A stretch of 64,000 nucleotides of DNA from an uncultured Elusimicrobia bacterium. GTDB lineage: Bacteria > Elusimicrobiota > Elusimicrobia > 2-01-FULL-59-12. Each line of letters opens with the position of its first letter. Within the stretch, counting starts at the first letter, position 1. Shown piece after piece: positions 56,359 to 59,769 of the stretch. The translations under genes and the position numbers were made by a program. The notes under the pieces were generated by a model. It did not search any database. It had not been told where the DNA came from and worked only from the letters and a program-made list of their open reading frames with translations. Location of the stretch: assembly GCA_963702895.1 (NCBI GenBank), contig OY969767.1, positions 1,984,001-2,048,000 on the forward strand, read 5' to 3'.

Positions 56359-56443
56359 GGGCGTCCGCCCCGAGCACGCTTCGCGTGTAGGGGCAGCCCT
56401 AACAGCTCGCTTCAGCGAGCTGTCCGGGCGCCAACGCTGGAGT
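56359..56443. repeat. 85-bp branched palindromic element, direct repeat with 58329-58413
   Basis: 83/85 identical; two inner hairpins closed by GGCGTCC/GGGCGCC. Confidence 0.9.
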
Positions 56444-56595: not shown

Positions 56596-57840
56596 TCATT
56601 CAACCGTCACAACCTTCCACAACAGTTCCTGCCCCTTCATCGCGCCGTAAGCCAACGTCTTGCCATCCGGGCTAAAAGTGAGGCTTCCCACCCAATCAAA
56701 GGGCGCAAGTTTTCTTTCATTCACCACCACATGATGTTGTCCCGTCTTCTTATCTTCAGCTATGTAGGCAAGCTGCTTGCCATCCGAGCTATAAACGAGG
56801 TCCCTCGTGGCGTCGCATTCCTTCCCTTCTTTGCCGTTTGCAACAACAACAACTCTTCCTTTCCGCTTCGCCGCATAGGCGATCTCTTTGCTGTCCGGAC
56901 TAAAAACGTAGGATGCCAAATAATTATCATAGGTTTCCAATATCATATCGTCGACAACAAGACAGGGTTTTGCCTTCATCACGAGGTATGCGATGCGTTT
57001 CCCGTCGGGAGAGAAAAGAGGGTGGAAAACATTTGTAAAACTCTTCCCGGGCCTCCCATCGCGCACCATGAAACATTCGCCTTTGGCTCTGCAGGCCGGA
57101 TAGGCCACGTGTTGACCATCGGGACTGAAGCCAATGAAGGAGACGTCATAAAAAGCCTCTCCTCTCTGATTATTGATCACAGCAAACCAGAGTCCTTTCT
57201 CCTTTGCTGTATACGCTGTTGTCCTGCCGTCCGGACTGAACCGATAGCCTTTAACGGCGTCGAACCCTCCGCTTCGTTTCCCGTCCAATACGAGAAACCA
57301 GCGCGGGCCCTTTTTGGCTGGATATGCCAAACGGGTGCCGTCCGGACTGAAAAAGGGGTCACCTACTTCATCGAAAGCTTCTTGCGGTTTCTCATTAACA
57401 ACGACGAACCAATGACGACCCTTCCTGGCCGTATAAGCCAGTCTCGTGCCATCCGGACTGAAAATGGGGTCACCTACTTCATCGAAAGCTTCTTGCGGTT
57501 TCTCATTAACAACGACGAACCGATGACGACCCTTCCTGGCCGTATAAGCCAGTCTCGTGCCATCCGGGCTGAACACGGTGCCGTGTCCAGCCTTCACGAA
57601 ACCGCCCTTCCGCTCACCAATAAAGACGATCTGGTTATCAAGGGCATCCCATCCGCGCCTCCAGGCCTCCGATGCATGGCATGCCACGTGTTTCCCATCA
57701 GGAGTAAATACTGGCCAAAGAGCGACATAGTCGGACGGGATAGTAGCCAAGAGCCTCTCCTGATATAGACTTTCTTCAAGCCCAAACACTCCCGAGCAAG
57801 AGACAAAGATCAGGGCCGACGTAAGCAATGTGCTTTTCAT
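56596..57840 (-). CDS. Exported beta-propeller protein (TolB/PD40-like FSPDG repeats)
   Basis: About 9 FSPDG..AY repeats; signal peptide; 111-bp near-exact internal duplication. Confidence 0.85.
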   Translation of the reverse strand: MKSTLLTSALIFVSCSGVFGLEESLYQERLLATIPSDYVALWPVFTPDGKHVACHASEAWRRGWDALDNQIVFIGERKGGFVKAGHGTVFSPDGTRLAYTARKGRHRFVVVNEKPQEAFDEVGDPIFSPDGTRLAYTARKGRHWFVVVNEKPQEAFDEVGDPFFSPDGTRLAYPAKKGPRWFLVLDGKRSGGFDAVKGYRFSPDGRTTAYTAKEKGLWFAVINNQRGEAFYDVSFIGFSPDGQHVAYPACRAKGECFMVRDGRPGKSFTNVFHPLFSPDGKRIAYLVMKAKPCLVVDDMILETYDNYLASYVFSPDSKEIAYAAKRKGRVVVVANGKEGKECDATRDLVYSSDGKQLAYIAEDKKTGQHHVVVNERKLAPFDWVGSLTFSPDGKTLAYGAMKGQELLWKVVTVE

Positions 57841-57889
57841 TGGTATCCTCATTTCGACGTTTGATCCATCAAGCGACTTTCAATTACCC

Positions 57890-58156
57890 TTAAAGACGCG
57901 GAAACAAACGATTTTCCAGCCATGAGATAGCATAATAAAGAATGAAAACATTCGTTATATGGCCGAGGGAGAGCAGCGATAGCAGTATTGAATCTGAAAA
58001 ATGGATGGGAATTACAACGAGCAAATAAGGCCATGGCCAAGCAAGAAAGAAAAGACATATGTCTGCCAAAAGGTCTAAGTAGCCCCGCGATAACCATATG
58101 ATCAGTGTCACGAGAGCATACACACAGGTGATGCCAACGGCAAAGATTGATCTCAT
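57890..58156 (-). CDS. Small AT-rich membrane protein
   Basis: 88 aa with three hydrophobic segments. Confidence 0.45.
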   Translation of the reverse strand: MRSIFAVGITCVYALVTLIIWLSRGYLDLLADICLFFLAWPWPYLLVVIPIHFSDSILLSLLSLGHITNVFILYYAISWLENRLFPRL

Positions 58157-58328
58157 GTCTCAAATCACATTCAGCGAGCCAGTGCTCGCTCGGGGAGTTC
58201 CCTTTACGCCATACTCCAGGTTACGTGTGAGATGGTGAAAGCTGGAGTGGCGGACGGGATTTCCCGCCACTGAGTCTTCGTCCGCCACTACGGCTTAGGC
58301 GGATCCGCCAACGTCTTAGTGGCGGAGA

Positions 58329-58413
58329 GGGCGTCCGCCCCGACGACGCTTCGCGTGTAGGGGCAGCCCTAACAGCTCGCTTCAGCGAGCTGTCCGGGCG
58401 CCAACGCTGGAGT
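58329..58413. repeat. Second copy of the 85-bp element
   Basis: See 56359-56443. Confidence 0.9.
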
Positions 58414-58442
58414 GGCGGACGGGATTTGAAGCGAGTGGCGAA

Positions 58443-58634
58443 TGTGCCCGGCGGGATTTGAACTCGCGACCTTCCGCCAGAAGTCTGGCGGACGCTCTAT
58501 CCTGGGAAATAAGTCACCCCTGTGCCCGGCGGGATTTGAACTCGCGACCTCTTCCTTCGCAGGGAAGCGCTCTATCCAGCTGAGCTACGGGCACAGGGGT
58601 GACTCGAATCAACTTACCGCTGAGCTACGGGCAC
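58443..58634 (-). pseudogene. Split pseudo-tRNA-Arg enclosing the intact tRNA
   Basis: 58443-58502 plus 58619-58634 rebuild the tRNA, with the anticodon arm replaced and the D-loop interrupted. Confidence 0.85.
58521..58594 (-). tRNA. tRNA-Arg(GCG), CCA not encoded
   Basis: GTGCCCGTAGCTCAGCTGGATAGAGCGCTTCCCT-GCG-AAGGAAGAGGTCGCGAGTTCAAATCCCGCCGGGCACA cloverleaf. Confidence 0.92.
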
Positions 58635-58652
58635 ATTCGCCACTCGATGATC

Positions 58653-58774
58653 CGCGACCTGTCGCCAGATCCGACACACTTCAGTCGGACCCGCCTGCTT
58701 TGTGGCGGGCGTCTGGCGACCGCTCTATCCAGCTGCCTGCCCGCCAACGTCGTAGTGGCGGGAGCTACGGGCAC
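58653..58774 (-). pseudogene. Partial pseudo-tRNA-Arg (5' portion) with branched hairpin in place of the anticodon arm and a hairpin in the D-arm
   Basis: CGCGACCT [60 nt] CGCTCTATCCAGCTG [27 nt] AGCTACGGGCAC. Confidence 0.85.
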
Positions 58775-58797
58775 ACTAACCGCAAATCTTCTATTGA

Positions 58798-58876
58798 CGT
58801 CACCCCGGCATGTCGTAAGCCGGGGTCTATCATGTTTCGACGGAAATGATGGATCCCGGCGTCCGCCGGGATGACG
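58798..58876. repeat. CGTC-type REP doublet
   Basis: CGTCACCCCGGC...GCCGGGGTCTATCAT...ATGATGGATCCCGGC...GCCGGGATGACG. Confidence 0.75.
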
Positions 58877-58951
58877 GCACAGAAATGTCCACTAACCTCA
58901 GACGACAAAACCGGCCAACAGAAGATTCTTGGTCAGCCAGGAATCGGGTGC

Positions 58952-58960
58952 ATTGTATCA
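58952..58960 (-). promoter_or_regulatory. Putative extended -10 promoter for the tRNA-Arg cluster
   Basis: TGATACAAT on the minus strand. Confidence 0.5.
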
Positions 58961-58981
58961 AACGGTAAGGATTTGCATTGT

Positions 58982-59075
58982 GCGTGATTAAGTGATTGGG
59001 TGATTAGGTGATTCAGGGATGCAATGCCGTAGGCTACTCCCCTAATTACTCAATCACTTAATCACCTAATCACGC
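58982..59075. repeat. Convergent octamer arrays (GTGATTNN x4 / NNAATYAC x4) forming a long hairpin
   Basis: Read directly from the sequence. Confidence 0.8.
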
Positions 59076-59079
59076 CCAA

Positions 59080-59769
59080 CTAAGAAAGCAGGCCGCGCGC
59101 CGTAAGGCCCAAGAGGACCACGGCCATGTTGCCAATGATGAGATGCACCCAAGTGCGTTCTTGGGATCTGTAGAAGGATAAGTAGGCGATCCAACCCAAC
59201 CAACCGAAGGCGAGCAGAAAAAGTGGCCCCGGCAAGAGAAAGAGACTGGCGCCGATGAGGCGCTCGCCGATAAAACGATATTTTTTGTCCCCCATCATCT
59301 CCGAACGACCCCAGAGATCGCTCTCAATAAAATAGATCAGGACCGACACAAAATGTGAAAGGACCACGACGCAAAGCACAGGAAAGATCCACATCGAGAC
59401 CGCCGTCTCGTTGGTCGTGGGCGAGAGCGCCAGGATCATGACGATATGCACCACCTGGTCCCAGAGAAAAAACCCGGTGCTGTCGGGGCTTCCCGTCTCC
59501 TGAATGGACCAGACCCGCCACTCGTCCTCAAGCCAGTGGAAGAGCGTGATCACGGCGATACAAACCCAGCCATTCATCCGGAGGAGCGGCGCGTCCACCC
59601 AGGTTTGTCCGAGATAGGGCCAGCAAAGCGCGTAAGAAACAAGGGGGTGCGTGAGAGTGTGGATCAGCATGCCCAGCCGGCTTTCGCGCTTCCAAGAGGC
59701 GACCTTATTGGTTTGAAGCGTGAAATCAGCCACAAAATGCGCCAGGATGAGGCGCCAGAAGATTTCCAT
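59080..59769 (-). CDS. DUF3307-like membrane protein
   Basis: LAHFVADFTLQ..., H..., FLWDQVVH, ER. Confidence 0.75.
   Translation of the reverse strand: MEIFWRLILAHFVADFTLQTNKVASWKRESRLGMLIHTLTHPLVSYALCWPYLGQTWVDAPLLRMNGWVCIAVITLFHWLEDEWRVWSIQETGSPDSTGFFLWDQVVHIVMILALSPTTNETAVSMWIFPVLCVVVLSHFVSVLIYFIESDLWGRSEMMGDKKYRFIGERLIGASLFLLPGPLFLLAFGWLGWIAYLSFYRSQERTWVHLIIGNMAVVLLGLTARGLLS

Follow-up and report, generated by a model that had tools for sequence, protein, structure and literature searches.

A tRNA-Arg(GCG) gene nested in crippled copies of itself: probable scar of a small GIY-YIG-linked tRNA-gene cassette in an Elusimicrobia genome

INTRODUCTION

Why does a working tRNA gene lie inside a broken copy of itself, and why have the copies around it exchanged their anticodon arms for hairpins? 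This question is raised by the tRNA-Arg(GCG) locus in a 64000-nt stretch of DNA (positions 1984001–2048000 of the contig; hereafter the window) of an uncultured Elusimicrobia bacterium, whose genome (G000) was analysed as one closed-looking contig of 2.72 Mb with 57% G+C. A preliminary description of the locus had reported an intact gene within the D-loop of an outer copy, a third partial copy upstream and two different hairpins replacing anticodon arms at identical boundaries. In the present study we examined the locus, the other tRNA loci of the genome, related genomes and other phyla. The anticodon arm is replaced by members of one palindrome family at the same two tRNA positions at six tRNA loci, in a sister genus and in other phyla, and this palindrome is statistically tied to genes of small GIY-YIG nucleases. 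We consider it probable that the crippled copies are the product of a small selfish tRNA-gene cassette, with serial occupation of the locus, loss of the nuclease open reading frame (ORF) and later colonisation by hairpin repeats.

RESULTS

One intact gene and two crippled copies

Read along the minus strand, the locus opens with TGATACAAT (58960–58952), a convergent pair of NTS-like hairpins (58876–58798) and copy A (58775–58653). After an 18-nt spacer, the final 12 nt of which are the leader arm of an outer clamp, follow the 5′ piece of copy B (58634–58619), 24 nt ending in an inner clamp, the intact gene, 18 nt starting with the inner clamp, the 3′ piece of copy B (58502–58443), the second half of the outer clamp, and T-arm remnants with palindromic repeats to ~58238. 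The intact tRNA-Arg(GCG) (58521–58594, minus strand, as are all of the copies and clamps) was called by ARAGORN at 58520–58595 and by Rfam (RF00005) at 58521–58594 with 68.1 bits. It alone passed the RF00005 gathering threshold of 29 bits, copies A and B not being reported, and it is the sole functional tRNA-Arg(GCG) copy of the locus. CCA is not encoded.

The 5′ piece of outer copy B (58619–58635) comprises tRNA positions 1–16 and base −1, stops in the D-loop and is identical with the intact gene over 17/17 nt (blastn-short). Its 3′ piece (58443–58502), defined by the exact-anchor census described below and by folding, contains positions 18–26, a 20-nt palindrome in place of the anticodon arm (58473–58492) and positions 44–73. 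The two parts are separated by 116 nt, with a junction ambiguous by 1 nt and one D-loop T missing. Copy A (58653–58775), which aligns with the upstream crippled copy of the related genome G006, consists of positions 1–13, a D-arm hairpin, positions 13–26, a palindrome with a nested double hairpin, and positions 44–51, and has no T-loop or 3′ end. Its D-arm insert is a 26/27-nt hairpin of the REP (repetitive extragenic palindrome) type (58736–58762), and its anticodon arm is replaced by the palindrome GTCGCCAGAC..ATCTGGCGAC enclosing the double hairpin (58661–58720). All of the tRNA-derived stretches of both copies are identical with the intact gene by repeat search and blastn-short: 58443–58472 equals 58521–58550 (30 nt, 100%, repeat search), GAGCTACGGGCACA occurs at three sites (58582, 58622 and 58762) and CGCTCTATCCAGCTG at two (58568 and 58721). 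The nested arrangement described earlier, with its third partial copy upstream, was thus recovered by ARAGORN, Rfam, the repeat search and blastn-short.

The 12-bp inverted repeat previously seen to close the outer copy proved to be part of a perfect 19-bp inverted repeat (58432–58450/58628–58646), made up of 12 flanking base pairs and the acceptor stem; its leader half is CGAGTGGCGAA (58636–58646) followed by T at 58635, and its trailer half is TTCGCCACTCG (58432–58442). The intact gene is bounded by a perfect 17-bp inverted repeat of its own (58512–58528/58588–58604), which was absent from the preliminary description. Here the leader half AGTCACCCCT (58595–58604; inverted-repeat search and fold) pairs with the trailer half GGGGTGACT (58512–58520; inverted-repeat search), so that the acceptor stem is lengthened to 17 bp.

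Folding confirmed all of the hairpins proposed earlier. Folded as DNA, TCCGCCAGACTTCTGGCGGA formed 8 bp with a 4-nt loop (−8.7 kcal/mol, z −5.6; 0/200 shuffles as good), the 60-nt replacement of copy A gave a three-way structure (−22.3 kcal/mol, z −6.3; 0/200 shuffles) and the 27-nt D-arm insert gave a 7-bp hairpin (z −2.6; 2/200 shuffles). The whole nested unit, folded as RNA, had a z of −8.6.

Both replacements belong to one palindrome family

The replacements in copies A and B are members of one palindrome family, NNCGCCAGA..TCTGGCGNN, with the stems GTCGCC..GGCGAC in copy A and TCCGCC..GGCGGA in copy B, and both lie exactly between tRNA positions 26 and 44. The 60-nt branched structure of copy A is a 20-nt palindrome with a double hairpin inserted at the centre of its loop: in a relative found in DNA run X2, the 5′ part of copy A is unchanged and the plain GTCGCCAGACGTCTGGCGAC stands in place of the nested form. 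The earlier claim of two different replacements therefore did not hold, as the two are variants of one family.

The same replacement at other tRNA loci of the genome

For a census of the genome, exact anchors were derived from the two flanks of the anticodon arm of all 48 tRNAs, 6 nt on the 5′ side and 5 nt on the 3′ side, and inserts were required to have terminal inverted repeats of 5 or longer. The census retained 18 of 8084 anchor pairs, and seven of these were palindrome-bearing tRNA copies (Ala-TGC, Arg-GCG A and B, Pro-TGG twice, Ala-GGC and Thr-GGT). Two further copies, with an extra doublet in the left anchor, flank tRNA-Ala(CGC), one on each side. Altogether, the palindrome occupies the space between positions 26 and 44 in nine crippled copies at six tRNA loci, eight of them starting with GTCGCC and one with TCCGCC. 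The sequence GGCGACAGGTC occurs seven times in 2.72 Mb, always within palindrome-bearing crippled tRNA copies. Thus the scan of other tRNA loci that had been suggested for this genome found the same palindrome at the same boundaries, and the shared boundaries of copies A and B are a family trait rather than a coincidence of two events. Searches allowing mismatches or short anchors were swamped by chance matches (4263 and thousands) and were discarded.

Most tRNA genes of G000 have same-orientation partial copies, with 5′ pieces mostly upstream, 3′ pieces mostly downstream and breakpoints in loops. Many displaced copies carry double hairpins of 45–47 nt directly after GGTTC in the T-loop; as the anchor search for these was noisy (116 matches, many by chance), it was used qualitatively.

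Some tRNA genes of G000 are followed by tandem arrays. Behind tRNA-Gln(CTG) (C1:2455000–2455640) lie six 82-bp units, each made up of a T-arm, interrupted after GGTTC by a double hairpin, and of the 3′ end and trailer, and behind tRNA-Val(GAC) (C1:1171040–1171830) lie five or six 120-bp units, each opening with the last 17 nt of the tRNA. At C1:1666618–1666704, an 87-nt tRNA-Glu(TTC) call by ARAGORN overlaps the start of a normal tRNA-Glu(TTC) by 3 nt; rather than a gene, it is probably a crippled copy that contains an insert.

Relatives of the locus

The comparison set comprised ten other genomes of the family, including three same-genus drafts that are 73–89% complete. tRNA-Arg(GCG) was found at E 1e-18 or better in 3/10 of the family genomes, and the three same-genus drafts had no assembled copy (0/3). 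Identity to the window gene was 100% in G006 and G010, 97% in G008 and 81% in G007. G008 and G010 have the intact gene alone with no displaced copy, and G007 has in addition a displaced 3′ piece (positions 44–76) with a double hairpin in its T-loop. In G006, of a sister genus, the intact gene stands between two displaced pieces: upstream of it is a 5′ copy in which GTCGCCGCGGCGAC fills the space from position 26 to position 44, and downstream, beyond 190 nt, is a 3′ copy, which has the same palindrome as the upstream copy and a T-loop doublet. Alignment with the related genomes thus placed a replacement of the same palindrome family at the same boundaries in a sister genus. MAFFT paired copy A with the upstream copy of G006, the 3′ piece of copy B with the downstream copy, and intact gene with intact gene. 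The 190-nt interval of G006 encodes SSRAEAVRRERYLKTGIGRQELDKLLR followed by a stop, which is what remains of the C-terminus of a small GIY-YIG protein (eight ORFs of this kind gave tblastn E values from 1.9e-9 to 5e-4). The clamp of copy B resembles that of the G006 intact gene in its outer part (AGTGG..CCACT). From these similar clamps we considered copy B as the positional ortholog of the G006 intact gene; MAFFT instead aligns intact with intact.

A link to small GIY-YIG genes

G000 has ten Pfam GIY-YIG matches, six of which lie 22–343 nt from a tRNA gene, compared with ~0.14 expected (our own calculation from genome share). All six tRNA-linked genes sit between an intact tRNA and a partial copy, and one of them, in the 16S–23S spacer, has a stop codon. 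The ORFs are of 72–86 residues and single-domain; the tRNA-linked proteins, such as the 79-residue one of the tRNA-Ala(GGC) cassette (C1:1700967–1701170), end in YLKTGxGRxEL, whereas the canonical genes here end in a tail of the IKxWxRxWKxxLI type. The other four matches comprise three away from tRNAs and one inside a 447-residue ORF, presumably UvrC. In the ten relatives, a tRNA lies no farther than 250 nt from 7/24 of the small GIY-YIG loci examined, and the Ala-GGC and Gln-TTG cassettes were found again in other genera.

We then scanned across species, with one genome per species, for the pattern GGCGACAGGTCGNNRGTTC, a match being classed as hairpin-type when the complementary arm precedes it; GIY-YIG ORFs in these loci were called with our own profile, built from seven tRNA-linked ORFs. 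The scan gave at least 133 matches in at least 118 loci. Among the matches listed, to which the following counts refer, two lay inside ARAGORN tRNA calls and 82 were hairpin-type. A same-strand GIY-YIG ORF was present in the locus for 52/82 of the latter, and it ended no more than 40 nt before the palindrome in 41/82. As a control, none of the 51 non-hairpin matches (chance occurrences in coding sequence) had a GIY-YIG ORF. By record title, the loci belong to Verrucomicrobiota, Planctomycetota, Patescibacteria, Dehalococcoidia and Elusimicrobiota. The typical layout in Verrucomicrobiota and Planctomycetota is an intact tRNA-Pro, a 3–25 nt spacer, an ORF of ~78 residues with its stop codon in the D-stem TAGAGCG, GTCGCCGCGGCGAC, and tRNA positions 44–76. 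A metagenome scan with GGATAGAGCGNNCGCC was too loose, since its 120 loci were almost all ordinary tRNA-Arg genes with an anticodon stem starting NNCGCC, and it was rejected. Applied to 15 cassette loci with a limit of E 0.01, Rfam reported tRNA only and no described RNA family for the crippled copies.

In operational terms we define the cassette as a same-orientation partial copy beside an intact tRNA, a palindrome of the GTCGCC..GGCGAC family between positions 26 and 44, and a GIY-YIG ORF of ~80 residues between the copies. The locus in the window has the partial copy and the palindrome and lacks the ORF; it is therefore at most a relic of a cassette.

In the 16S–23S spacer at C1:580595–580862 of G000, the interval that separates tRNA-Ile from tRNA-Ala in the rRNA operon is taken up by a GIY-YIG pseudogene (one TGA), and this is followed by a palindrome-bearing crippled tRNA-Ala with the T-stem of tRNA-Thr(GGT), i.e. 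a chimera. Two loci of a Dehalococcoidia metagenome-assembled genome (by record title; L146 and L177) are arrays of four and five 108-nt units, each with a tRNA 3′ part, GGTCGCAG/GGCGAC replacing the anticodon arm and a terminator-like hairpin, and no GIY-YIG ORF was found within the stretch examined.

Hairpin repeats of the genome

The genome is rich in short palindromes. CCGCCA-N(4–12)-TGGCGG occurs at 89 sites, often as inverted doublets and many adjoining tRNA genes. The NNCGCCAGR..YCTGGCGNN family, which includes the replacement in copy B and the outer stem of that in copy A, has 25 members, seven of them within 400 nt of a tRNA gene. The NTS-like family GTCA(T/C)CCCGG..CCGGG(A/G)T has 166 copies, and the published SRM search pattern (PMC11893778) gave 147 genome matches, a number without a shuffle control, one of them at 58798. 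This match is an Ssn-related (NTS-like) hairpin, CGTCACCCCGGC..GCCGGGGT (58798–58826, plus strand), and with a second hairpin of the 166-copy family, CGTCATCCCGGCGGACGCCGGGAT (58853–58876, minus strand), it makes up the convergent pair upstream of copy A, as the fold of the pair also indicates. A genome search with Pfam Y1_Tnp (RAYT-type) gave one weak match (23.3 bits, E 1.1e-4, 55/121 profile positions).

Promoter, transcripts and assembly

The sequence TGATACAAT (58952–58960, minus strand) is a likely extended −10 element, judged from its sequence, and now lies ~357 nt upstream of the mature 5′ end. The word proposed earlier as the promoter of the cluster is thus present, and the proposal is strengthened by the same −10-like word, GATACAAT, 28 nt upstream of tRNA-Arg(GCG) in G007, but a two-hexamer promoter scan of 58000–59300 found no site. 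In G006, the extended −10-like TGCTAAAAT precedes the upstream crippled copy rather than the intact gene.

The run data consisted of contigs only; no run had half of the search words, and 58230–58515 and 58932–58990 were uncovered. A 151-nt DNA contig of run X1, possibly the source sample, is identical with 58612–58762 and spans the 5′ piece of copy B and copy A. This agreement, the single 2.72-Mb contig and the recurrence of the architecture in independent assemblies speak against the misassembly that had been raised as a concern. The RNA runs held mostly tRNA-Arg of other organisms. A 270-nt contig of a relative from an RNA library (run X16), aligned to 58521–58735, has an identical tRNA-Arg(GCG), a 20-nt spacer and a downstream copy. 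The latter begins at position 13, and its anticodon arm, from position 26 to position 44, is replaced by GTCGCCATTCGGCGAC, a further form of the palindrome that differs in the loop. This bridging contig, of depth 2, is the sole hint of expression; it comes from a relative, and DNA may occur in RNA libraries.

Other features of the locus and its tRNA setting

Downstream debris (58238–58430, minus strand; repeat search and motif counts) contains two T-arm remnants (TTCAAATCCCG/AAATCCCG fused to TCCGCCACTCCAGC) at 58403–58430 and 58238–58262, and a REP doublet at 58281–58326. An 85-nt repeat with the internal hairpin CAGCTCGCTGAAGCGAGCTG occurs twice in the window, here at 58329–58413 and again at 56359–56443 (98% identical). 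Just upstream of the likely promoter lies an imperfect 42-nt inverted repeat of GTGATTRR-type 8-mers (58978–59079).

Clamps are found beyond this locus. In G000, 15 of the 48 tRNA genes have 6–15 nt of perfect leader–trailer complementarity directly outside the acceptor stem, with a different sequence each time, and the genes so clamped are mostly without an encoded CCA, e.g. tRNA-Leu(GAG) at C1:1180629. The tRNA-Arg(GCG) orthologs of G006, G007 and G008 have clamps of other sequence, and that of G010 has none. Such clamps are possibly a scar of fold-back synthesis or a processing signal. The arginine tRNA set of G000 is GCG, CCG, TCG, TCT and CCT, with no tRNA-Arg(ACG). CGN codons are normally read in bacteria by ACG (inosine), and its absence here may be tied to loss of TadA.

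DISCUSSION

A proposed cassette residing in tRNA genes

We propose that the cassette would consist of a single-domain GIY-YIG gene of ~80 residues, a conserved GC palindrome (GTCGCC..GGCGAC) and a spare tRNA copy or part-copy. Wherever the cassette is found, one tRNA copy is intact and the displaced copy bears the palindrome exactly in place of the anticodon arm, from base 26 to base 44. If SsnA and SegB are a guide, the nuclease may cut tRNA-gene DNA, perhaps as an extruded single-stranded hairpin, and repair would then copy the cassette and duplicate tRNA segments. At the locus in the window, the nuclease gene would have been lost after at least two rounds had been stacked. Copy A may retain the ancestral 5′ end, behind the old promoter. 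Copy B has its own clamp and hence the look of a gene that once worked; it probably served as the functional gene one round earlier, and the present gene, with a new clamp, would have been placed in its D-loop. Other hairpin repeats may later have settled in the apical loops of the dead copies, in the D-arm of copy A and at the centre of its palindrome. We infer the cutting and copying steps as well as the order of the rounds.

As the replacement always lies at the same structural boundaries and recurs across loci, a sister genus and phyla, a position- or structure-specific process, suggested in the preliminary description in place of random decay, is the right kind of idea; its premise of independent replacements is not. 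The preliminary description also did not see the connection with a GIY-YIG nuclease cassette or with hairpin repeat families spread over the genome.

Several observations weigh against a nuclease cassette as the source of the crippled copies, or limit it. The region 57500–59600 of the window contains no GIY-YIG ORF or remnant, the best tblastn match (E 0.027) being a translated NTS-like hairpin, and the nuclease link for this locus thus rests on the G006 ortholog and on analogy. Among the matches listed, 30/82 of the hairpin-type had no ORF, so the palindrome can persist, or perhaps arise, without the gene. As the scan pattern fixed GGCGAC, one arm of the palindrome, invariance across phyla is partly built in and overstated. 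The distance to the nearest tRNA exceeds 400 nt for 18 of the 25 members that the 20-nt palindrome family has in G000, and hence the palindrome is not exclusive to tRNA genes; moreover, its stems differ by paired changes that keep the pairing (GT..AC against TC..GA). The Ala-GGC and Gln-TTG cassettes look vertically inherited, as would be expected of a resident element rather than of one that is actively homing. The perfect identity of all of the tRNA-derived stretches of the dead copies is unexplained by simple old debris and requires recent origin, gene conversion or selection. Finally, the small nucleases match no specific NCBIfam model, with a weak 20–23 bit match to a group I intron endonuclease model, and we know of no cleavage activity or target for the tRNA-linked subfamily.

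Alternative explanations

The abundance of hairpins in this genome raises the question of whether the GIY-YIG genes are bystanders, with REP/REPIN-like doublets and 20-nt palindromes alone targeting the loops of tRNA genes and slippage or unequal recombination doing the rest. The 89 CCGCCA..TGGCGG sites, the 25 members of the palindrome family and the 166 NTS-like hairpins would provide the material for this; doublets of 45–47 nt do follow GGTTC in T-loops, a doublet sits in the loop of the palindrome of copy A, and there is no ORF at the window locus or in 30/82 of the hairpin-type matches listed. We nevertheless regard this explanation as improbable. A clear REP-associated transposase was not found, the single Y1_Tnp match scoring 23.3 bits; the palindrome between positions 26 and 44 is found in phyla that do not necessarily share these repeats, abutting a GIY-YIG ORF in 41/82 compared with 0/51 of the matches listed; and slippage leaves unexplained both the constant intact copy and the order of 5′ pieces upstream and 3′ pieces downstream. 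The crippled copies could also be selected RNA modules in the leader or trailer of the pre-tRNA, acting as decoys for anticodon nucleases, handles for RNase P/Z or regulators, and their perfect identity with the working gene, the paired changes in the palindrome stems (GT..AC against TC..GA) and the conservation of copy A between two genera speak for such selection. Transcription is expected from a likely promoter upstream of every copy, and the contig from the RNA library of a relative (270 nt, depth 2) links the intact tRNA to a palindrome-bearing copy, although contigs do not prove a transcript and RNA libraries can contain DNA. However, the truncation points differ, copy A being without an acceptor partner or T-arm and copy B being split, and only the intact gene is reported by Rfam at the gathering score. 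With no anticodon, the copies cannot mimic the loop of an anticodon-nuclease substrate, and their palindromes are DNA repeats that occur away from tRNAs too, with perfect Watson–Crick pairing and no G–U pairs, suggesting templated DNA events rather than RNA selection. On balance, a role as selected RNA appears doubtful, and so does the decoy function suggested in the preliminary description.

The integration of mobile elements commonly leaves tRNA gene fragments in prokaryotes (PMC9897764), and the copies might accordingly be att-site remnants of integrase-mediated islands or prophages. This is very improbable and largely refuted: the nine ORFs tested around the locus include no integrase (PD40, DUF3307, CHASE2 cyclase, HisRS, DUF1016/YhcG, DUF4156 or no match), the copies are just 18–40 nt apart, upstream 5′ pieces cannot be produced by integrase duplication of a 3′ part, and the anticodon arm is replaced by a palindrome. 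The absence of an assembled copy from the three same-genus drafts (0/3, 73–89% complete) indicates a region that is hard to assemble, as an artefact in a repeat-rich region would have it. We give an artefact almost no credence, in view of the single closed-looking contig, the identical 151-nt X1 contig over the 5′ piece of copy B and copy A, and the same architecture in independent assemblies (G006, the X2 and X16 relatives and other phyla).

A bolder proposal, which we offer only tentatively and regard as rather unlikely in its entirety, is that the tRNA genes of this lineage are serially renewed by structure-guided hairpin exchange. The mini GIY-YIG nuclease would read the cloverleaf of single-stranded tRNA-gene DNA, and the anticodon hairpin would be swapped for the nuclease's own palindrome. 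A fresh tRNA copy would be installed, clamped by a newly templated leader–trailer inverted repeat, and the same loop-seeking chemistry might bring other hairpin repeats into T-loops, D-loops and palindrome centres. Being still transcribed as part of the pre-tRNA leader, the crippled copies would perhaps be kept for immunity to re-cutting or for processing.

Relation to known systems

The proposed nuclease cassette has published relatives. According to Chenal et al. 2025, who describe Neisseria meningitidis SsnA and its NTS/SRM repeats (PMC11893778), nucleases of the SsnA type, with GIY-YIG as their single domain, attach to single-stranded DNA and cleave it next to their own hairpin repeat; Ssn repeats lie on both sides of the gene, in the manner of insertion-sequence ends. 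Like the Ssn system as set out there, the cassette pairs a single-domain GIY-YIG protein of fewer than 100 residues with a short hairpin DNA repeat by the gene, the repeat being present in many copies. G000 also carries two genes that look like the canonical single-domain type of the cd10448 clade (C1:543339 and C1:554279); both are flanked by NTS-like hairpins, and neither lies in the window. Unlike in the Ssn system, the element is tied to tRNA, a word with no occurrence in the accessible text of that paper (PMC11893778). In addition, the cassette palindrome GTCGCC..GGCGAC is not an SRM and has a fixed structural position within a tRNA copy, and the tRNA-linked proteins differ from the canonical-looking proteins here in their C-terminal tail.

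SegB is a two-part protein, a nuclease with an added DNA-binding region, an architecture not found in the tRNA-linked ORFs of G000, which are single-domain. In phages T4 and T6 it is a free-standing GIY-YIG homing endonuclease in tRNA gene clusters (PMC2330249, available text), and, being tRNA-linked, it drives tandem segmental amplification of tRNA segments (PMC13096335, available text). The likeness lies in a GIY-YIG gene adjoining tRNA genes (6/10 matches in G000 within 350 nt, none in the window) and in cutting within the tRNA region with amplification of tRNA segments, as these accounts portray it, which resembles the 82-bp and 120-bp arrays of G000. SegB differs in being a phage protein, in that the amplified tRNAs stay intact, and in that the same accounts, as far as available, have no anticodon-arm palindrome and no crippled nested copies.

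REP, BIME and REPIN repeats, with RAYT transposases in proteobacteria, are short extragenic palindromes in many copies, often as inverted doublets, and the repeats here are likewise short palindromes, in many copies and in inverted doublets. Unlike in the REP/RAYT systems, no convincing RAYT was found here, insertions are at the loops of RNA-gene copies and one palindrome replaces a whole stem–loop. REP/RAYT-type repeats are also compared in PMC11893778. At the ends of integrated islands and prophages, as in the cassette, a complete tRNA copy is accompanied by a partial one of like orientation; the islands and prophages themselves are kilobases long, need an integrase and duplicate the 3′ part only (PMC9897764), whereas the pieces here lie tens of bases apart, include 5′ parts and carry palindromes.

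The 178-bp repeats behind Escherichia coli tyrT (rtT) open with the tRNA 3′ end, and they resemble the arrays of G000 as tandem units each starting with the last tRNA bases. We know of no nuclease gene, T-loop hairpin or anticodon-arm palindrome in rtT. A full-text search, with subscription journals outside its reach, found no paper on a GIY-YIG gene with a palindrome inside duplicated bacterial tRNA genes. A phylogenomic survey of the GIY-YIG family mentions tRNA solely for a TrmH fusion (PMC1564403), and the available text of the paper on prokaryotic tRNA fragments credits integration and CRISPR and does not mention GIY, endonuclease or hairpin (PMC9897764). Thus the initial impression that no such system had been described agrees with the literature searched, although Ssn/NTS and SegB are published relatives; the small nuclease element in the tRNA genes of many bacterial phyla that most likely left the scar in the window is apparently undescribed.

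Significance

If the cassette reading is true, tRNA genes in at least five phyla (by record title) harbour a selfish element that is widespread and very small and does not destroy them. Its design, absent from the literature searched, would be to keep one copy intact and to plug the other with a fixed palindrome in the anticodon arm. Such an element would explain many ‘pseudo-tRNA’ calls in the genomes of uncultured bacteria, would give the uncharacterised tRNA-linked GIY-YIG subfamily a testable target, and would link the newly described single-stranded DNA hairpin nucleases (Ssn) to insertion specific to gene structure. To this picture the locus in the window would add an example from a complete genome in which the ORF is gone and several rounds, one upon another, are still on record.

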